Translations under genes and position numbers: made by a program
Notes under the pieces: generated by a model
What the model saw: the letters and a program-made list of their open reading frames with translations, nothing else
Databases searched by the model: none
Told to the model about the DNA's origin: nothing
Shown: positions 9,801 through 40,879 of the stretch, one piece after another
Position numbering within the stretch: position 1 is the first letter of the stretch
Layout: every line of letters starts with the position of its first letter
From: Escherichia coli
Lineage (GTDB): Bacteria; Pseudomonadota; Gammaproteobacteria; Enterobacterales; Enterobacteriaceae
Length of the DNA: 64,000 nucleotides
Reading direction: 5' to 3' (one strand)
NCBI RefSeq assembly: GCF_003019035.1
Contig: NZ_CP027447.1

Positions 9801-9948
9801 GAACTTTTTAAGATTATTGCGGAATGGCGAAATAAGCACCTAACATCAAGCAATAATAATTCAAGGTTAAAATCAATAACTTATTCTTAAGTATTTGACA
9901 GCACTGAATGTCAAAACAAAACCTTCACTCGCAACTAGAATATCTCCC

Positions 9949-10041
9949 GCTATCATCATTAACTTTATTTATTACCGTCATTCATTTCTGAATGTCTGTT
10001 TACCCCTATTTCAACCGGATGCCTCGCATCCGGTTTTTTTT
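9949..10041 (+). ncRNA. micF: MicF antisense sRNA (represses ompF)
   Basis: GCTATCATCATTAACTTTATTTATTACCGTCATTCATTTCTGAATGTCTGTTTACCCCTATTTCAACCGGATGCCTCGCATCCGGTTTTTTTT; divergent from ompC, ends in hairpin plus T-run. Confidence 0.9.
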
Positions 10042-13694: not shown

Positions 13695-13777
13695 ACCTGT
13701 AGGCCAGATAAGACGCGTCAGTGTCTTATCTGGCATTTGCACTGAATGCCAGATGCGGCGTAAACGCCTTATCCGTC
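13695..13777. repeat. REP palindromic units between convergent rcsB and rcsC
   Basis: cctgtaggccagataagacgcg...gccagatgcggcgtaaacgccttatcc imperfect palindromes. Confidence 0.65.
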
Positions 13778-16627
13778 CTACGATTCCCGCGATTTCCTGA
13801 CCCTCTCGGCATATACCGTCAGCGTCTGTTTTATCACATCCAGCGTTACCGGCTTCGACAGGCAGCTGTCCATACCGGACTCCAGACACCGCTGCTTCTC
13901 TTCAGCCAACGCATTAGCAGTTACTCCGATTACCGGCAACGTCAGTCCCAACTGACGAATGCGTTGCGTCAAGCGGTAACCATCCATATTTGGCATGTTG
14001 ACGTCGCTAAGCACGATATCAATATGATTCTTGCTAAGTACATTAAGCGCATCGACGCCATCATTCGCGGTTTTACATTGATAGCCCAACGATCCCAACT
14101 GATCTGCCAGCAGACGCCGGTTAATCGGATGATCATCCACGACCAGAATCATCATATCGTCATTATCGCTGACCGCTTTGTCCGTCGACGGCAGAGCGTT
14201 AGCAGGATCGTCGCTCTCCATCTCGATCAAATAAATACGCGCCAACAATGCCGGTAGCTCATGCGGGGCAGCCACACTGTGTACCCACTCCCCTGGCGCT
14301 TTCTCCAGCGGAATACCAATATGGCGACGACAGAAGGTCACTACCGCTCTACCCTGCCATTTTTTACTCACTACCTCGTCAGTAATTAACACATCTTCGG
14401 GAGTCGGTTCCTGCCCTTCGTATGTTGTAACGACGATGCCGCTGCGCTGCAAACTGGTTTCCAGGAACTGACAGAGCGACGCATTGCGGACCGCCAGCCA
14501 GCAGCGTTTACCACTCAACCCTTCCACGCCTTTTTTCTGCGGGTACTGAGCGCCGTACAACGGAATACGCACGGTAAACTGGCTGCCCATTCCCGGTTCT
14601 GAATCTACCGAGATGTCGCCGTCCATCATGCTGATCAGTTTTTCACAAATCGCCAGACCCAGACCGGTCCCCTGGAAGTTTCGCTGTACGCCCGTTCCGA
14701 CCTGGAAGAAGGGATCAAACAAGCGCACGACTTCTTTCGCCGGAATCCCCACGCCGGTATCGCGAACACGGATAGAGAGATAATCGCCATCAGCGCGAAC
14801 ATGCAAAACTATACAGCCGGTATCGGTGAATTTTATGGCGTTACTCAACAGGTTGGAGATGACCTGCTGTAAACGCATCGGGTCGCCATTTAAGGCCACT
14901 GGCACATCCGGTTCAATAAAGCAGTACAAGCCTAACTGCTTGCGTACCACCAGCGGTAAATAGTTGGCGGTGATGTGGTTCATCACTTCACGCGGTGAAA
15001 ACTCACGCGGTTCGATCTTCAACTGTTCTGATTCAATTTTCGAGAAATCGAGAATATCGCTGATAATTTTCAACAACAGGCTGGAAGAGTTGTTCATTGC
15101 CGTCACCAGACGATCGACGCCTTTCGGTAACTCTTTGGTTTGCAACAGATCCAGGTTACCGATAATGCCATACAGCGGCGTTCGCAGCTCATGACTGACG
15201 GTGGCAAGGAACATCGATTTTGACTGGCTCGCCTGTTCCGCTGCTTGTGCCATCTCCTGCAACGACTCTTCCATCTTCACGCGCGAAGATACATCCACCA
15301 GCACACAAATGGCCACGTTTTCATTACGATAGCGCGAATGGACGAAGCTGATTTGCAGATTGGTATTGTTGCTGGTCAGGACATCAACAAAATTGACCTG
15401 CTGCCCACAGATAATTTGTGTCAGCCGTTGGCGATCCTCATGCGTAAGCATATTGAGATAGGTATGCGCCAGTTCGTTACTTAAAATATTGACGCCATCA
15501 GCGGTACGCAAAATGCAGATACCCACTGGCGCGGAGGCGACAATCTTGCGATTAAACTGCTCATGTTCTTCCAGTCGCAGGGCGTCGCTTTCCGCCGGAA
15601 TGAAAATACGTCGCTCGTACATCCGCGCGAGAGTAAACAATGCAGCTCCGGCAAGCACATTCAGCAAAATTGCGTTAAGGATCAACATGCGAATGCGTTC
15701 CAGCACCTTATCAACCGGCACCGAATACACGATGCTTAGCGATGAGGGTGGCAGATTTTTCTTCAGCACCAGCTCCCGGAACCCTTCCGTATAGCCAAAC
15801 CAGGAGCGTTCCTGCATCCAGCGAGGATCGCCCTTAATTTTGCTTTCTGGTCCGGTAAGCGAAATCAGGGTATGACCATTTTCATCAAGAATGGTAACCC
15901 CCATCGGCAACGTACCAGGTAAGAAAAAGTTCTCCATCCGGATGGTCTGCTCGACACCCAAAAGCGCCTGCAACCGGTTCGCCAGATAAACTGGCGTCAA
16001 CGCGTAAAAATACCCGACGCCAGGGCGCGGACCTTCGCTGATCCAGTAGAGGTTACTGCCACTATCATCTTGTGGTGCATTTCGATATTTATTAATGCGT
16101 TCATGCAACGCTTTTAGCGCGGTATCGCGTTCCACTGGCATATCACGCAGACCGAAATTGGCCATGCAGAGGTTATCGCTGCCGATTAAAAATACCCGGT
16201 TGAGATCGTAAGCCGCAGAAAAATTATCGCGCCAGTAGCGCATAAACCACGCCAATGACTCCAGAGAACCTCGCCAGGTGTTACTCATTGCGGAACAATC
16301 AGAGTCAGCAAACAGCGGTTCAAACGCAGGCACATCCGTCTGCGTTTCTCGTCCACGCGGGGAAAGCACACCGTTTTCTGCCGATAAGCGATTTTCGGCG
16401 ATGTACTTCAGCTCTTTCATCACATCAGAGGTGCGTTGAATAAAGCGCTGAGCCTGATCGGAACTCAGATTAAATTCCTGACGAATTTCCGATTCTCGCT
16501 GATGTAACGCATTAACGATGTAAAAAACGGATGAAAAAGCAATCAACAGCCAGAGCACTAACGCCAATGCTCTGAACATGTAGCGCGAGGCTTTCAGGGT
16601 TGTACGAAAAGAAGCAAGGTATTTCAA
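13778..16627 (-). CDS. rcsC: RcsC hybrid sensor histidine kinase
   Basis: 949-aa ORF MKYLASFRTTLKASRYMFRAL...; HisKA motif SHELRTP and C-terminal receiver domain. Confidence 0.93.
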   Translation of the reverse strand: MKYLASFRTTLKASRYMFRALALVLWLLIAFSSVFYIVNALHQRESEIRQEFNLSSDQAQRFIQRTSDVMKELKYIAENRLSAENGVLSPRGRETQTDVPAFEPLFADSDCSAMSNTWRGSLESLAWFMRYWRDNFSAAYDLNRVFLIGSDNLCMANFGLRDMPVERDTALKALHERINKYRNAPQDDSGSNLYWISEGPRPGVGYFYALTPVYLANRLQALLGVEQTIRMENFFLPGTLPMGVTILDENGHTLISLTGPESKIKGDPRWMQERSWFGYTEGFRELVLKKNLPPSSLSIVYSVPVDKVLERIRMLILNAILLNVLAGAALFTLARMYERRIFIPAESDALRLEEHEQFNRKIVASAPVGICILRTADGVNILSNELAHTYLNMLTHEDRQRLTQIICGQQVNFVDVLTSNNTNLQISFVHSRYRNENVAICVLVDVSSRVKMEESLQEMAQAAEQASQSKSMFLATVSHELRTPLYGIIGNLDLLQTKELPKGVDRLVTAMNNSSSLLLKIISDILDFSKIESEQLKIEPREFSPREVMNHITANYLPLVVRKQLGLYCFIEPDVPVALNGDPMRLQQVISNLLSNAIKFTDTGCIVLHVRADGDYLSIRVRDTGVGIPAKEVVRLFDPFFQVGTGVQRNFQGTGLGLAICEKLISMMDGDISVDSEPGMGSQFTVRIPLYGAQYPQKKGVEGLSGKRCWLAVRNASLCQFLETSLQRSGIVVTTYEGQEPTPEDVLITDEVVSKKWQGRAVVTFCRRHIGIPLEKAPGEWVHSVAAPHELPALLARIYLIEMESDDPANALPSTDKAVSDNDDMMILVVDDHPINRRLLADQLGSLGYQCKTANDGVDALNVLSKNHIDIVLSDVNMPNMDGYRLTQRIRQLGLTLPVIGVTANALAEEKQRCLESGMDSCLSKPVTLDVIKQTLTVYAERVRKSRES

Positions 16628-33543: not shown

Positions 33544-36171
33544 TTATTCTTCTTCTGGCTCGTCGTCAACGTCCACTTCCGGAGCGATTTCATCGTCCCC
33601 TTCCGCGGCACTGCCGTCGATGGTATCCAGATCTTCCTCGTCAACCGGTTCAGCAACACGTTGCAGACCCACTACGTTTTCATCTTCCGCAGTACGGATG
33701 AGGATCACACCCTGGGTGTTACGGCCCACGATGCTGATTTCTGAAACGCGAGTACGTACCAGCGTACCGGCATCGGTGATCATCATGATCTGGTCGCAGT
33801 CATCTACCTGCACTGCGCCAACCACTAAACCGTTACGTTCGGTAACCTTGATGGAAATAACCCCTTTCGTCGCACGCGACTTGGTTGGGTATTCCGCCAC
33901 TGCGGTACGTTTACCATAACCGTTCTGCGTTGCGGTGAGGATTGCGCCATCACCACGAGGTACGATCAGAGAGACGACTTTATCGCCTTCGCCTAAACGA
34001 ATACCGCGAACACCGGTGGTGTTGCAGCCCATCGCACGGACAGAAGACTCTTTAAAGCGCACCACTTTACCTTCAGCGGAGAACAGCATTACTTCATCTT
34101 CGCCACTGGTCAGGTCAACGCCGATCAGCTCATCGCCTTCAACCAGTTTGATCGCCACTTTACCGGCAGTACGCAGACGGTTGAATTCGGTGAGGACGGT
34201 TTTCTTCACAGTTCCGTTAGCGGTCGCCATGAAGACTTTCACGCCTTCTTCAAACTCGGTCACTGGCAGGATCGCAGTGATACGTTCGTCTTGCTCCAGC
34301 GGCAGCAGGTTGACGATCGGACGACCGCGCGCGCCACGAGTAGCTTCTGGCAACTGGTAGACCTTCATCGAATAGACGCGACCACGGCTGGAGAAGCACA
34401 GAATATGGTCGTGGGTATTCGCCACCAGCAGTCGGTCGATAAAGTCTTCTTCTTTAATACGTGCGGCAGATTTACCTTTACCGCCACGACGCTGCGCTTC
34501 GTATTCAGAAAGCGGCTGATACTTCACGTAGCCCTGGTGAGAGAGCGTCACGACCACATCTTCCTGGGTGATCAGATCTTCCAGGTTGATGTCTGCGCTG
34601 TTGGCGGTGATTTCAGTACGACGTTTGTCACCGAACTGTTCACGAACCAGCTCCAGCTCTTCGCGGATCACTTCCATCAGACGATCGGCGCTACCAAGAA
34701 TACGCAACAGTTCCGCGATCTGATCCAGCAGCTCTTTGTATTCGTCGAGCAGTTTTTCGTGCTCAAGGCCGGTCAGTTTCTGCAGACGCAGATCCAGAAT
34801 CGCCTGAGCTTGCTGTTCGGTCAGGTAGTACAGACCATCGCGCACGCCGAACTCTGGCTCCAGCCATTCCGGACGCGCAGCATCGTCGCCAGCACGTTCC
34901 AGCATCGCGGCAACGTTGCCCAGCTGCCACGGATTAGCAACCAGCGCGGTTTTCGCTTCTGCAGGCGTCGGCGCATGACGGATCAGTTCGATGATCGGGT
35001 CAATGTTCGCCAGCGCCACGGCTAATGCTTCAAGGATATGAGCACGATCGCGAGCTTTACGCAGTTCGAAAATAGTACGACGGGTCACCACTTCACGGCG
35101 GTGACGAACAAACGCCGCGATGATGTCTTTCAGGTTCATGATCTTCGGCTGACCATGGTGCAATGCCACCATGTTAATACCGAAAGAAACCTGCAACTGG
35201 GTCTGGGAGTAGAGGTTGTTGAGCACCACTTCACCGACCGCATCGCGTTTCACTTCAATCACGATGCGCATACCGTCTTTGTCAGACTCGTCACGCAGCG
35301 CGCTGATACCTTCCACGCGTTTTTCTTTTACCAGTTCCGCAATCTTCTCGATCAGGCGCGCTTTGTTCACCTGATACGGAATTTCATGGACGATAATGGT
35401 TTCACGTCCGGTTTTGGCGTCAACTTCCACTTCAGCACGGGCGCGGATATATACCTTGCCGCGACCGGTACGGTAAGCTTCTTCAATACCGCGACGACCA
35501 TTAATGATTGCCGCCGTCGGGAAGTCCGGCCCAGGAATGTGTTCCATCAGCCCTTCAATGCTGATGTCTTCATCATCGATATACGCCAGACAACCGTTGA
35601 TAACTTCCGTCAGGTTGTGCGGCGGGATGTTGGTTGCCATACCTACGGCGATACCGGAGGAACCGTTCACCAGCAGGTTAGGAATTTTGGTTGGCATGAC
35701 GTCCGGAATTTTTTCCGTGCCGTCATAGTTATCAACGAAATCGACCGTCTCTTTTTCGAGATCGGCCATCAGTTCATGGGCAATTTTCGCCAGACGGATT
35801 TCCGTATAACGCATTGCCGCCGCAGAGTCGCCGTCGATGGAACCGAAGTTACCCTGACCGTCTACCAGCATGTAACGCAGCGAGAATGGCTGCGCCATAC
35901 GGACGATCGTGTCATAAACCGCCGAGTCACCATGGGGATGGTATTTACCGATTACGTCACCAACGACACGGGCAGATTTTTTATAGGCTTTGTTCCAGTC
36001 ATTGCCTAGTACGTTCATGGCGTAAAGTACGCGACGGTGTACCGGCTTCAGGCCATCTCGGACATCCGGCAGCGCACGGCCAACAATGACCGACATCGCA
36101 TAATCCAGATAGGAGCTCTTCAGCTCTTCCTCAATGTTGACCGGTGTAATTTCTCTCGCAAGGTCGCTCAT
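33544..36171 (-). CDS. gyrA: DNA gyrase subunit A
   Basis: 875-aa [50 protein letters not shown]...; QRDR reads [10 protein letters not shown] (Ser83 = TCG at 35925..35923, Asp87 = GAC at 35913..35911). Confidence 0.97.
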
Positions 36172-36215
36172 CTAACCGCTATCCCTCTACTGTATCCCGG
36201 ATTCAAAGGTCGGAG

Positions 36216-36221
36216 ATTATA
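36216..36221 (-). promoter_or_regulatory. Candidate gyrA -10 hexamer (TATAAT)
   Basis: Minus strand reads TATAAT about 45 bp upstream of the gyrA ATG; no mapped transcription start. Confidence 0.4.
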
Positions 36222-36429
36222 ACACAATCGCTTGCGGACGGGTAAACGTAATGCAGGCTTCCGGGCGCTGTAGATCTACTGCGTTTTACCCCACCGCCAG
36301 CACACATCGCGCTGGCGGTGAACGACAAAGGAACAAAGACCGCAACACGCTTCCTGTGCCTCAATAAACACCAGAAATAATGGCTATACTCGTCATACTT
36401 CAAGTTGCATGTGCTGCGTCTGCGGGTTA

Positions 36430-36598
36430 TTCGGCCCATCCATGGGCCTCACCCCTTACGGGGCCGCTGCAAGCAGCGTTCAAATCCGCTCCATGCGGAT
36501 TTGTCGCTCACCCCAGTCACTTACTTATGTAAGCTCCTTGGGATTCACTCGCTTGTCGCCTTCCTGCAACTCGAATTATTTAGAGTATATAAATCGCC
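36430..36598. repeat. ERIC-like (enterobacterial repetitive intergenic consensus) element
   Basis: Core at 36505..36548 is the reverse complement of GTGAATCCCaAGGAGCTTACATAAGTAAGTGACTGGGGTGAGCG, the conserved ERIC central inverted repeat; outer boundaries approximate. Confidence 0.7.
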
Positions 36599-36599
36599 G

Positions 36600-37802
36600 T
36601 TATTTGATCACATAGGCAAGATATTGTTGTACGATTTCATCGTTTAATTCCTGACCAAGCCCAGGCAACTCTGGCGCGACATAATAGCCATTCTCGGGTT
36701 GATAATCGTAAGTACAAAGTTCCCGAATACATGCTTTCATCGCATTGGTATGATGTTCATGAATAATAAAGTTAGGTATTGCAGTTTCCATATGCAGCGC
36801 CGCTACTGTTGAAACAGGCCCGCCACAAACATGTACCTGAACGGTTGTGTCATATATATTGGCATAATCACAAATTTTCTTTCCCTCTGTAATGCCACCA
36901 CAAAGACACAAATCAGGTTGAGCTACCGCAATTGATTGTTTTTCCAGTAAATCACGATATCCCCAGCGAGTATAAGAACGCTCACCTGTTGCTATCGGAA
37001 TCGATGTTGAACGGGCAACTTTCTGCATATTATCCGAATTTAATGGATGAATTGGCTCCTCATAGAGAAAAATACGATATTTCTCTATTGCTTTGGCAAA
37101 CTGGATCGCTGAATTTGTTCCTAGAAGAGAATGAATCTCTACAATAATATCAGCATCGTCGCCCATTGCTTCACGCATAGCGGCAATTCTTGTCTCGCCC
37201 ATTTTTAATTGTTCGGCCAGTAATAAGCCAGAGTAATTTCTATTTTTGTTCTGAAAGACACAATCGCCGCCATGCAGATCGATTTCAAGCGGATCAACTT
37301 TTATCGCATTATAACCTTCTGCAATAGCGGCACGCGCTGCCTCTGCATACTCTTCAGGCGTTACTAATATTTGCCTTTTTTCGCCCCAACCAAATTGTAA
37401 CTGACTGGCGTAAGTTCTCAATTTATCGTTAGTCTTTCCCCCCAGTAGTTGATAAACCGGCACGTTTAAATATTTACCTTTAATATCCCATAAGGCAATA
37501 TCAATAGCGCTCATACCTGCGTAAAAAACATTACCACCGCCCATTCCCCAAAATGTTTTCCTGAAGAGGAATTCCCAAATCTTCTCAATGTTCAACGGAT
37601 CTTCACCAATGATGAGAGGGGCTAAATCTCTGATAATACCAACACCAGATTTTGCACCTGCGCCATAGGCTAATCCTACTTCGCCAACACCACTTATTCC
37701 AGCATCGGTATTAACCCGAATAAGTACTGGATTATAAGAGGCCATAGTTTGATCTCTTTTTTTGAGTTCGCAGTCAAAAATTTCTACAGATGTAATCTTC
37801 AT
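36600..37802 (-). CDS. Enolase-superfamily dehydratase (mandelate racemase / galactonate dehydratase-like); substrate unknown
   Basis: 400 aa from the ATG at 37802 (GAGG Shine-Dalgarno 7 nt upstream; ORF track starts at 37814). Motifs ALWDIKGK, QLLGG, EEP, ATGER, QPDL, GGITE shared with DgoD/RhmD-type enzymes. Confidence 0.8.
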   Translation of the reverse strand: MKITSVEIFDCELKKRDQTMASYNPVLIRVNTDAGISGVGEVGLAYGAGAKSGVGIIRDLAPLIIGEDPLNIEKIWEFLFRKTFWGMGGGNVFYAGMSAIDIALWDIKGKYLNVPVYQLLGGKTNDKLRTYASQLQFGWGEKRQILVTPEEYAEAARAAIAEGYNAIKVDPLEIDLHGGDCVFQNKNRNYSGLLLAEQLKMGETRIAAMREAMGDDADIIVEIHSLLGTNSAIQFAKAIEKYRIFLYEEPIHPLNSDNMQKVARSTSIPIATGERSYTRWGYRDLLEKQSIAVAQPDLCLCGGITEGKKICDYANIYDTTVQVHVCGGPVSTVAALHMETAIPNFIIHEHHTNAMKACIRELCTYDYQPENGYYVAPELPGLGQELNDEIVQQYLAYVIK

Positions 37803-37814
37803 AAATAACCTCAT

Positions 37815-39143
37815 TTATTTAGCATGTGAAATAACATTGTCTTTCTGGGCGTTATCTTTTTTATTATCAATTTTCATTGATAACAAAATAGCTACGGCGA
37901 TAAAGCAAAGAATCGCCTCAACAATAAATATCCCCGTGGCTCCATAATGTGTAGAAACATAGCCAAGTGATTTATTGATCAGAAAACCACCCAAACTTGA
38001 ACAAGAGTTAATAAACGCAATACTGATTGCCAGGCCTGATGGTGAAAGTAAAGCTGAGGGTAAAGCCCAGTACGGACCGTAATAACTGAGAATGCCTACA
38101 CCGTATAATGTTAATCCCATCATGCGCAGCGTCATCGAAGGTACAAGTGCGATCATTAAAAAACCGCAACCTGCAACCAACATCGGTAGTGCGGCATGCC
38201 ATTTCCTTTCATTCTTTTTATCGGAATGCCATCCCCATAATGGCATACTGAACATCGCGAAAATAAACGGAATACTCATAATCAAACCGACATCGGTATC
38301 TGTGAAATCCGATGAAAATCCTTTAACCAACCCCGGTAACCAGTAATTTGCCGCCAACGCCGCTGCCTGAATAAACATATAAGCAAATGAGAGTTGTAGT
38401 AATACTGGATTTTTAATGATTGACAGAAAAGATGCATTTGTATTTTTATTTAATGCTGCGGCTTTTTCGTTATCAGAATTAAGTTTATCGACCAATGCGG
38501 TGACTTGCGATGGTGTAAGCCAGCGGGCTTTTTCCGGACGATCTGGCAGTAAATAAAAGGTCAGCGCCCCCAATAACACCGTAGGAATGCCTTCAATAGC
38601 AAAAAGCCAGCGCCATCCTTCATAGTTACCGGTATTCATATGTTCAATAATCCAACCAGACATTGGTGCCGCCAGCACAGATGCAACTGCGATTGATAAC
38701 ATAAAAAAGCTATTCACTTTTCCACGTTCACGCGCCGGGAACCAACATGCCAGGTAGTAAACCATGCCAGGGAAAAAACCCGCTTCAAATATTCCCAAAA
38801 AGACCCGAGCGAGCAATATATGCTGGGTGTCTTTGGCAAAGAAAATTAACGTTGTTACTGTTCCCCAACCAACAATAATGGCGCTAATCCATTTTCTTGC
38901 ACCTAACTTTTGCAATCCAATACTGCTCGGAATTTGAAAAATCAAATAGGACACAAAAAATATTGAAGATATATTAGCAAAATCCTCTGGAGTAATACCA
39001 AGGGATTCATTCATGCGTAAAGCGGCAAATCCGATGTTAACACGATCCATATAGTTAAAAAAATACAGAATAAATGCTAACGGAATAATCTTCCTTTTCA
39101 CAATAGAAATGGCGTCATACAAATCTTTCTGAGGACTGCTCAT
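37815..39143 (-). CDS. MFS transporter, anion:cation symporter family (sugar-acid type)
   Basis: 442-aa polytopic ORF; conserved DRxNIGFA and GIFEAGFFPG motifs as in RhmT/DgoT-type transporters; AAGGTG Shine-Dalgarno; 12-bp gap to the dehydratase gene. Confidence 0.8.
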   Translation of the reverse strand: MSSPQKDLYDAISIVKRKIIPLAFILYFFNYMDRVNIGFAALRMNESLGITPEDFANISSIFFVSYLIFQIPSSIGLQKLGARKWISAIIVGWGTVTTLIFFAKDTQHILLARVFLGIFEAGFFPGMVYYLACWFPARERGKVNSFFMLSIAVASVLAAPMSGWIIEHMNTGNYEGWRWLFAIEGIPTVLLGALTFYLLPDRPEKARWLTPSQVTALVDKLNSDNEKAAALNKNTNASFLSIIKNPVLLQLSFAYMFIQAAALAANYWLPGLVKGFSSDFTDTDVGLIMSIPFIFAMFSMPLWGWHSDKKNERKWHAALPMLVAGCGFLMIALVPSMTLRMMGLTLYGVGILSYYGPYWALPSALLSPSGLAISIAFINSCSSLGGFLINKSLGYVSTHYGATGIFIVEAILCFIAVAILLSMKIDNKKDNAQKDNVISHAK

Positions 39144-39380
39144 TTTGTTTCACCTTTTGTGCTTCAATGAATAAGAGTACTGCCCGAAGTGGATATTACG
39201 TAAAAAATAATCCAGTTCAAAAGGTGATGTGTTATATCTGATATATCAGCTTGATCATTGATTGAAACACTAAGCTACAACAATAAGATATATCATTTTT
39301 GTCATATCTGATATATTAGACACCTTCATTGATAAAATGATTACATATAATGGACCAGCAGCTTAATAAGGGGCAAAGGA

Positions 39381-40079
39381 ATGAGAGATAAAGCGAAACG
39401 TGACTTAAGTCACATATCAATTGAGATACCAAAATCCGTAACACAGGTCATCAAAGAAAAAATCAGGGATATGATAATTCATGGCGATCTCAGTCTTGGG
39501 CAACCGATAAGTGAAAATGAACTTTCGAATATCCTGGCGGTAAGTAAAACACCTATTCGTGAAGCTTTTATTTTACTTAGTCACAATGAAAATCTGATCA
39601 ATATCATTCCACGCAGCGGAACATTCGTTTTTTCCGTAACAGATAAAGATATTAATGACCTCATAAAAATGCGAGTAATTCTGGAGCAGGGTGCAATTCG
39701 TGAAGCAATGGAAAAGAATGAAAACAATGTCATCATTGAATTAAGTAGCATACTATCAAAATCAGCAAAAATTAATGCCGAGCGTGATACTCAGGCTTAT
39801 CTTAAATTGGATCATGATTTTCATTATGTGTTTGTTAAATACGCTGCTAATAAATACATCTCTCAGGCACACCAATTGATATCCGCACGTTTACTTGCTA
39901 TTCGTTATCGACTGGATTTCACTACGGAATATATTACCAATTCAAATCGTGGCCATGCCACTATTTTAGATATGCTAAAAAATAATAACGTTGAAGGTGT
40001 TTGTAATTTTATTACTCATCACGTAAGTAGTGGATTTACCGAGCGTGCACGAAAAATTCTCTCGTTATCTACACAGTAA
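39381..40079 (+). CDS. GntR-family transcriptional regulator (FadR/FCD-type C-terminal domain)
   Basis: 232-aa ORF; N-terminal winged HTH (ENELSNILAVSKTPIREAF); divergent from the MFS-dehydratase pair; AAGGGG Shine-Dalgarno 7 nt upstream. Confidence 0.8.
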   Translation: MRDKAKRDLSHISIEIPKSVTQVIKEKIRDMIIHGDLSLGQPISENELSNILAVSKTPIREAFILLSHNENLINIIPRSGTFVFSVTDKDINDLIKMRVILEQGAIREAMEKNENNVIIELSSILSKSAKINAERDTQAYLKLDHDFHYVFVKYAANKYISQAHQLISARLLAIRYRLDFTTEYITNSNRGHATILDMLKNNNVEGVCNFITHHVSSGFTERARKILSLSTQ

Positions 40080-40156
40080 AATGTGAATGAGTTTATAACA
40101 CTGGCACTTTTCACCTGCTATACTGCCCGACAACCTTTATAGACTCTTATGTAACA

Positions 40157-40879
40157 ATGAACACTGAAAATCTCCTTAAAAACAATAACGTAGACCACGA
40201 AGAGATCGCTAAATTTGAAGCCGTCGCCTCCCGCTGGTGGGATCTTGAAGGTGAGTTCAAACCGCTGCACCGCATTAACCCGCTGCGTCTGGGCTATATT
40301 GCCGAGCGTGCTGGCGGTTTATTTGGCAAAAAGGTGCTCGATGTCGGTTGTGGCGGCGGCATTCTGGCCGAGAGTATGGCGCGCGAAGGCGCGACGGTGA
40401 CCGGTCTGGATATGGGCTTTGAGCCATTGCAGGTGGCAAAGTTGCACGCGCTGGAAAGTGGCATTCAGGTAGAGTACGTGCAGGAAACCGTGGAAGAGCA
40501 CGCGGCAAAACATGCCGGGCAGTATGACGTGGTGACCTGCATGGAGATGCTGGAGCACGTGCCCGATCCGCAGTCAGTGGTCAGAGCCTGTGCGCAACTG
40601 GTGAAACCGGGCGGCGATGTCTTTTTCTCGACGCTTAACCGCAACGGCAAGTCATGGCTGATGGCGGTAGTCGGCGCAGAATATATTTTGCGCATGGTGC
40701 CTAAAGGTACACATGATGTGAAGAAGTTTATTAAACCGGCAGAATTGCTGGGCTGGGTGGATCAGACAAGCCTTAAAGAGCGGCATATGACTGGGCTGCA
40801 TTACAACCCGATCACTAATTCCTTTAAGCTCGGCCCCGGCGTGGATGTGAACTATATGCTGCATACGCAGAATAAGTGA
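40157..40879 (+). CDS. ubiG: UbiG, ubiquinone biosynthesis O-methyltransferase
   Basis: 240-aa ORF with SAM-binding [13 protein letters not shown] motif; N-terminus [16 protein letters not shown] differs from the recalled K-12 N-terminus, the rest is near-identical. Confidence 0.93.

Follow-up and report, generated by a model that had tools for sequence, protein, structure and literature searches.

Two families of repeated sequences in Escherichia coli are among the closest described relatives of the locus reported here. The ERIC element, also known as IRU or RU-1, is a 127-bp enterobacterial MITE. It was reportedly described by Sharples and Lloyd in 1990, by Hulton and colleagues in 1991 and by Wilson and Sharp in 2006. 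ERICs with internal insertions of about 70 bp are said to have been the subject of work by Cromie, Collins and Leach in 1997 and by Sharp in 1997 (Mol Microbiol 24:1311-1315), both cited in PMC3696847. With these longer forms the copy reported here reportedly shares inserts of 71-78 bp, fixed internal sites and a well-folded structure that is kept. The second family, known as tRNA-linked repeats (TLRs) or RtT RNA and situated downstream of tRNA, tmRNA and 5S genes, reportedly appears in work by Egan and Landy in 1978, Bosl and Kersten in 1991 and Rudd in 1999. TLRs were first described in 1978; 22 of them are found at ten loci of K-12, and they have no established function (PMC8144298). Each of the K-12 TLRs has as its last 18-19 bp a copy of the tRNA or rRNA 3' end that lies upstream of it; three members from rRNA operons (RrA/B/F) undergo processing and, in vitro, bind both Hfq and CsrA (PMC8144298). 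The family is represented by the RtT RNA model RF00391 (Stenum et al., 2021, PMC8144298).

The locus lies in a 64-kb window (the whole stretch of E. coli DNA that was analysed), in the spacer between gyrA and a dehydratase gene. It is occupied by an ordinary ERIC in its known long form. The exact core, arms of 96-99% identity, an intergenic position at the 3' end of a gene, a multicopy distribution and presence that varies between strains are all shared with ERIC/IRU. The window copy differs in its length of 205 bp, which is due to internal insertion, and in an empty-site junction without a clean TA duplication. A 78-bp insert at 36425-36503 splits what is otherwise a canonical ERIC of 127 bp, and no gene is carried by the element. 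There is a high probability that 36385-36589 is a long-form ERIC/IRU that arrived after the surrounding gene islet, carries a module related to RtT/TLR, is dispensable and did not make the islet junction.

The ERIC copy and its setting between gyrA and ubiG

The gene order in the window is ompC-micF-rcsDBC-ato-yfaPQSTA-gyrA, followed by three extra genes and then ubiG-yfaL-nrdAB. The gyrA-ubiG spacer of K-12 is only 146 bp long and is without the three genes. These genes have a GC content of 35-41%, compared with 54% in gyrA and ubiG, and 141 of the 5426 complete E. coli genomes carry the islet that they form. By BLAST, the match to K-12 breaks off at 36226 and resumes at 40180 within ubiG, so that the islet occupies about 36227-40179; a GGTAAAC motif at 36242-36248 is also conserved with K-12, beyond the end of BLAST homology. 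The dehydratase is annotated in RefSeq as a mandelate racemase/muconate lactonizing enzyme family protein, and against NCBIfam it is galactonate-dehydratase-like, under the equivalog cut-offs. The features of the region are as follows.

33544-36171, minus strand: gyrA.
36217-36246, minus strand: putative gyrA core promoter, read from the sequence and its conservation with K-12.
36227-36384, no strand: islet-side spacer, from where K-12 homology ends up to the ERIC.
36385-36589, minus strand: the whole long-form ERIC, TATACTCG...GAGTATA, 205 bp, delimited by a five-locus alignment.
36385-36424, minus strand: the 3' (outer) arm of the ERIC, which pairs with 36549-36589 in the predicted fold.
36425-36503, minus strand: the nested module A, 79 nt replacing one canonical T (net +78), not in the CE10 allele.
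36504-36589, minus strand: the 5' arm and central inverted repeat of the ERIC, from the core match and alignment with CE10 and SMS-3-5.
36590-36602, minus strand: a 10-bp gap and the stop codon of the dehydratase gene, from the list of open reading frames.
36600-37814, minus strand: islet gene for an enolase-superfamily acid-sugar dehydratase, from the same list, with its stop codon at 36600-36602.
37815-39143, minus strand: islet gene for an ACS-type MFS transporter.
39381-40079, plus strand: islet gene for a GntR-family regulator.

The 44-nt central inverted repeat of ERIC, which is the region of the ERIC1R/ERIC2 primers, is found at 36505-36548 on the minus strand with 44/44 bases and no mismatches. 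It is matched by 0 of 100 shuffles, and it is the sole copy in the window. The first-pass annotation had proposed an ERIC-like repeat with its core at this place in reverse orientation, and had staked the identification on alignment beyond the 44-bp core. The exact match agrees with that proposal, and about 36385-36590 matches ERICs at 96-99% identity; since the similarity extends past the core, the ERIC identity stands. Of the 5426 complete E. coli genomes, 5425 contain copies that match this region, and the median number of places is 6 per genome. Most matches are split in two, together about 128-136 nt long, and leave out 36425-36503 (megablast with a 449-bp query across the gyrA-dehydratase spacer; query 214-419/426). 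A stretch in the middle of 36385-36590 is therefore not ERIC.

The strand of the element is that of the consensus core, and also that of the flanking dehydratase and gyrA genes. Its ends were set where the flanks diverge between this locus and the ERICs at yqfE-rpiA, yehL-yehK, preT-yeiS and yajO-dxs. These limits replace the earlier span of 36430-36598, which omitted the outer arm, overshot by 9 bp and did not see the insert. The distance of about 50 bp from the dehydratase 3' end that had been given is correct for the core and incorrect for the element, which ends 10 bp from the stop codon. The core carries a variant T at 36540, CCTTGGGAT compared with the usual CCTGGGGAT. In CE10, the allele at the gyrA locus is exactly 127 bp long and forms one long hairpin when folded.

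On the gyrA side, the minus strand contains TATAAT (36217-36222) and TTTACC (36241-36246), which are 18 bp apart and conserved with K-12. They are probably the -10 and -35 of gyrA, as judged from their sequence, and would mark the true left edge of the islet. A promoter/terminator consensus scan of 36100-36700 called nothing, the gyrA promoter included; since even this promoter was missed, the scan is uninformative on read-through. The 158-bp spacer at 36227-36384 is common to all islet alleles, ERIC-free ones included, and its GC content of 52% sets it apart from the islet genes (35-41%). An inverted repeat with a 10-bp stem lies in this spacer at about 36303-36331 (CACCGCCAGC-N9-GCTGGCGGTG), with the ERIC on one side and the gyrA promoter on the other; it is found in all islet alleles and has a U tract on neither strand.

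Several side observations were made on the islet and the window. The right junction of the islet falls within the first ~8 codons of ubiG (window 40157-40180). These codons and the whole upstream region differ from K-12, where the protein starts MNAEKSPVNH.., and therefore the ubiG promoter and 5' end differ in islet strains. RefSeq calls a frameshift in the islet GntR-family regulator in every islet genome inspected (annotated span 39337-40079). In the window the open reading frame is 232 aa long with its start at 39381, and the regulator may be truncated or mis-called; because it is annotated as frameshifted, the islet may be decaying. At gathering thresholds, Rfam finds only two RNAs in the window, both away from the ERIC: MicF at 9948-10041 on the plus strand, upstream of ompC, and naRNA4, a REP325-type nucleoid-associated RNA, at 13702-13778 on the minus strand, between rcsB and rcsC.

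Alleles of the gyrA-dehydratase spacer

The alleles at this spacer were counted among the 141 islet-bearing genomes out of the 5426 complete E. coli genomes. Four states were found.

Empty site, 42/141 genomes: spacer of 224-225 bp, ...AATAATGGC-CT-TAAATCGC, in at least two haplotypes.
Bare ERIC of 127 bp, 66/141 genomes: CE10 and IAI39 among them.
ERIC with module A only, 205 bp, 1/141 genomes: the strain of the window.
ERIC with modules A and B, 276 bp, at least 31/141 genomes: SMS-3-5 among them.

Module A is thus present at this locus in 33 genomes, the window's strain and 32 others, at least 31 of which carry module B too. The query for the empty-site junction found 20 genomes; the PD23/Z30 haplotype was read directly, as its SNPs break the megablast seeds. 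When the 99 filled sites are compared with the 42 empty ones, a 'CT' is seen to be replaced, in place of a clean TA duplication, and for this reason an imprecise event or a later mutation must be assumed. At yqfE-rpiA the K-12 site is cleanly empty, with an overlap of TATA, when set against the ERIC with modules A and B of E2348/69. In SCU-301, the window's strain, the interval from argP to rpiA contains four additional genes, which code for a ferredoxin reductase, a DUF1471 protein, an azoreductase and a full-length LysR. K-12 has only the yqfE pseudogene remnant there, which makes it another small variable region.

ERIC-free islets have the lowest identity to the window (98.8-98.9%), and ERIC-bearing islets have 99.1-100%. 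Because some islet genomes have an empty site and others have a bare or a module-bearing ERIC, the ERIC post-dates the islet and is dispensable. The simplest reading of these sequences is that the ERIC entered the spacer of a pre-existing islet, or at least did so independently of it. The rare core T (CCTTGGGAT) of the window ERIC is common to five bare-ERIC alleles with 100.0% identical flanks. The module A of the window is one base off the A of the local alleles that carry both modules, and it is identical to the A of E2348/69 elsewhere. A second copy of module A that could have served as a donor was not found in the window's genome, where the spacer upstream of rpiA is without an ERIC. The step between the bare ERIC and the ERIC with A is not a simple indel, as one T stands against 79 nt, and the same odd junction between ERIC and A is found in all E. 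coli and E. albertii copies.

The allelic series bears directly on the proposal that this ERIC marks the core/islet junction and acted as a recombination substrate or hotspot when the islet was acquired. As a dispersed repeat, an ERIC could serve ectopic recombination, and this one is near the gyrA-proximal end of a low-GC islet. The first-pass annotation had placed it exactly at the core/islet boundary. The boundary is elsewhere: homology to K-12 gives out at about 36227-36250, immediately upstream of where the gyrA -35 is placed and 135-158 bp away from the element, and the ERIC lies in islet-side DNA because this homology stops at 36226 (GGTAAAC extending to 36248). When the junction is compared in genomes with and without the islet, as the annotation had advised, K-12 lacks both the islet and any ERIC between gyrA and ubiG. 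The core scan of the 64-kb window revealed no second ERIC at the ubiG end, where the junction is inside the first ubiG codons. The 42 empty-site genomes have the islet, the same junction and the same spacer. As ERIC-free alleles share the spacer, and as neither K-12 nor the ubiG end has an ERIC, the element does not lie at the junction, and the junction does not require it. Since it is post-islet and dispensable, the hotspot idea is unsupported and we consider it extremely improbable. The ERIC does not explain how the gyrA-ubiG islet was acquired.

Relatives of the nested module

Module A sits just outside the central inverted repeat, directly after ...GGGGTGAGCGA on the minus strand. On the sense strand its four hairpins read CAAAUCCGC..GCGGAUUUG-AACG-CUGCUUGCAG-CG-GCCCCGUAAGGGGU-GAG-GCCCAUGGAUGGGC-CGAAUAACC. 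Module B is 71 bp long and is inserted after ...GCGAGTGA, before ATCCCC. The two have the same orientation and the same hairpin layout, with compensatory differences between them. Among the E. coli genomes, A is found in 648 and B in 616, each at a median of one copy per genome. Module A is also present in the ERICs at yqfE-rpiA, yehL-yehK, preT-yeiS and yajO-dxs, and its site is always the same.

A species-wide scan of one genome per species, with a motif from the centre of the insert, returned at least 120 DNA stretches with at least 128 motif copies. Among the matches listed, about 80 copies are inside Enterobacterales ERICs at the same site. More than 35 of the ERIC-nested copies among these matches belong to Serratia oryzae, and the other hosts listed with ERIC-nested copies include Dickeya, Pectobacterium, Yersinia, Citrobacter and E. 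albertii. The rest of the copies among the matches listed are outside ERICs. In other Gammaproteobacteria and in a Mariprofundus genome, the module is found just downstream of an intact tRNA-Ser, tRNA-Arg or tmRNA gene. In these places a duplicated T arm and 3' end of that gene surround it (...GGTTCGA / module / ATCC...NCCA). An insertion into a live T loop, or a T-loop intron, was also considered; it is rejected because the interrupted piece is a duplicate of the 3' end only, and because both ARAGORN and Rfam detect an intact tRNA or tmRNA gene upstream. Similarly, an integrase-borne mini-island was dismissed, as no consistent integrase or transposase neighbour was found at 19 non-enteric copies.

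Other arrangements of the module were seen in single genomes or groups. In Enterobacter sp. Ag1, the module splits a duplicate of the 5S rRNA 3' end (..CATGCGA / module / GTAGGGAACTGCCAGGCAT), and the rrn terminator comes next; this 5S-linked module is the counterpart of the E. coli rrA/rrB/rrF TLRs. An Oceanospirillales MAG and another genome have tandem arrays downstream of tRNA-Arg and tRNA-Ser. Each array unit combines a tRNA 3' end with a terminator hairpin, with a second hairpin of the form GGAYGAGAACC..GGTTCGA and with the module, so that it carries its own terminator, and one array carries two modules back to back. These arrays look like the product of serial integration or unequal crossing-over. 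Multicopy repeats of Pseudomonas spp. retain only the centre of the module (TTGAACG-hairpin-CGGCCCCGAAGGGGTGAG-CGNAGCGAAT) within other flanking repeat sequence.

In an alignment of 46 diverse modules, 94.8% of the cells are paired and 14 pairs are changed on both sides. The covariation score is 0.366, compared with 0.116 for shuffles and about 0.04 for slid partners, and the covariation is located in hairpins 1, 2 and 4. The central 35 nt are conserved by construction because the loci were collected with the motif of the window insert; evidence independent of this selection comes from hairpins 1 and 4, from module B and from the RtT units of K-12. A custom covariance model (R1) was built from the 46-module alignment. 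It matches the window insert at 36427-36509 on the minus strand with 92.6 bits (E 4e-25), and with filters off it has no further match in the window between 30 and 45 kb. Among sequences that were not selected by the motif, it matches module B with 42 bits (E 2e-10) and four units of K-12 tyrT/tyrV with 23-27 bits (E 6e-6 to 7e-5). R1 finds a fourth RtT-type module in the tyrT-tyrV spacer of K-12, besides the three 178-bp units past tyrV.

Rfam's RF00391 (RtT), with a gathering score of 45 bits, has no match at E<=10 on 36150-36700, and it matches the tRNA- and tmRNA-linked copies at 36-43 bits. The family link between the module and RtT comes from the custom model R1 and from intermediates, and not from Rfam's own RtT model. 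RF02902, the model of the Aggregatibacter sRNA candidate AaHKsRNA22, matches the window at 36392-36512 on the minus strand over its full length with 29.1 bits (E 9e-4 to 2e-3), below its gathering score of 39.8; it matches the motif-collected copies of Pasteurellaceae at 67-79 bits. The insert has the same hairpin layout as AaHKsRNA22 over model positions 1-101, whereas taxon and context differ.

The likeness to RtT/TLR lies in the order of the four hairpins and in the linkers ..UUGAACG.., ..CGGCCCC-GGGGYGAG.. and ..CGAGUAA. The RtT units of K-12 tyrT-tyrV have the same parts in the same order as the tRNA-linked copies of the module. The hallmarks of a TLR, which are a location in a stable-RNA operon and the 18-19-bp copy of a tRNA or rRNA 3' end, are absent from the window module, as is the TLR 5' part GGAUGAGAAcc..GGUUCGA; the module is embedded in an ERIC instead. 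On its 3' side stands an ERIC arm (..GAAUAACC / CGCAGACGCAGC..) and not ..AUCC...NCCA, and ARAGORN finds no tRNA or tmRNA gene in the 64-kb window. The insert shares the core module of TLRs but lacks the location and the 3'-end copy that define them, and it falls short of the Rfam threshold. In the library of papers searched, none relevantly joins RtT/rttR with ERIC; the link between the ERIC insert and TLR/RtT is the sole part of these findings that may be new.

Origin and possible role of the module

The origin of the module can be read in two ways. It could be an active, site-specific mobile element whose insertion into the ERIC already present in the window's strain was recent, a reading that we find unlikely. 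Its target would be ...YGA^A... in hairpin-forming DNA (TTCGA^ATCC of the T loop; GAGTGA^ATCCCC or GAGCGA^AC of the ERIC core), an assignment that is equally unlikely. Such mobility is suggested by the fact that the closest alleles, those with identical flanks and the shared core T, are without the module, and by the same site and orientation in every ERIC examined (about 80 of at least 128 copies among the matches listed). Two related modules at two similar sites of one ERIC point the same way, and so does the splitting of copies of tRNA, tmRNA and 5S 3' ends outside enterics. The module lacks terminal inverted repeats and a target duplication and has subterminal hairpins, in which it resembles elements moved as single-stranded DNA. 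Against a mobile module, the window's genome has no donor copy, the step from one T to 79 nt is not a simple indel, the 19 loci inspected lack a consistent transposase or integrase neighbour, and the copy number in E. coli is low. Moreover, every E. coli locus and E. albertii show one and the same idiosyncratic junction, which is expected if one composite of ERIC and A spread or converted other copies. Gene conversion, or spread of this composite, fits the alleles at least as well as a fresh insertion of the module does. The most likely source of the differing module content of the alleles is gene conversion, acting between ERIC copies or between alleles, or else some site-specific mechanism. 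More broadly, the ~70-bp ERIC insertions and the TLRs might be one entity, an autonomous four-hairpin module of about 75 nt, kept with compensatory changes in Gamma- and other Proteobacteria, that is mobile or spread by conversion; we regard this as a tentative possibility and on balance doubt it. With the same reserve, the module would always take one orientation, at the ...YGA^A... step of hairpin-forming sequence, and would have colonised two unrelated hosts. Its sites would perhaps comprise the TTCGA^ATCC of the T loop, the 5S 3' end and the two sites of the ERIC core, in which case the gyrA alleles might have caught the change of state.

A second question is whether the ERIC with its module acts on the transcripts around it. 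Most likely, the element would form the 3' untranslated part of the transcript of the MFS-dehydratase operon. The predicted fold of this part is a long ERIC stem with small hairpins as its cap, which could alter the 3'-end processing or decay of the operon mRNA; the ERIC would also separate this operon from the putative gyrA promoter 135 bp further on. The annotation had recommended folding of the minus-strand RNA, and in the predicted fold the ERIC arms still pair around the insert, with four small interior hairpins. The predicted minimum free energy of the window element as transcribed-strand RNA is -99 kcal/mol (z -7.8); when the three allele lengths of 127, 205 and 276 bp are folded alongside each other, the values are -52.9, -92.6 and -128.5 kcal/mol. 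A role as a structured 3'-UTR element, which the annotation had suggested in the form of a transcript-stabilising 3' element, is plausible for the ERIC on these models. A stronger proposal is that the ERIC and its module are a selected regulator, either an mRNA stabiliser or RNase-processing structure, or an insulator of the gyrA promoter from read-through; this seems to us fairly improbable. In its favour, the ERIC starts 10 bp past the dehydratase stop codon on the strand of both the operon and gyrA, the predicted fold is very stable, and among its TLR relatives RrA/B/F undergo processing and show in vitro binding to Hfq and CsrA (PMC8144298). According to reviews, Yersinia ERICs alter the levels of upstream transcripts in an orientation-dependent manner via an RNase E site. 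However, four states, absence included, exist at one site in islets that are otherwise at least 98.8% identical, and therefore a required function is not suggested. No intrinsic (U-tract) terminator is predicted between the operon and the gyrA promoter, in a scan of 36100-36700 that missed the gyrA promoter too, and the frameshift annotated in the islet GntR regulator, with the islet perhaps in decay, also speaks against selection.

The insert ties two repeat families of E. coli whose function is unknown to one structured module that is found Proteobacteria-wide. If this link is absent from the older literature, it would narrow the module to a processing signal, a protein- or RNA-binding structure or a mobile element. 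The series of four states next to gyrA, in near-identical DNA, is a natural test bed for the effects of the ERIC and its inserts on mRNA 3' ends and on the promoter.
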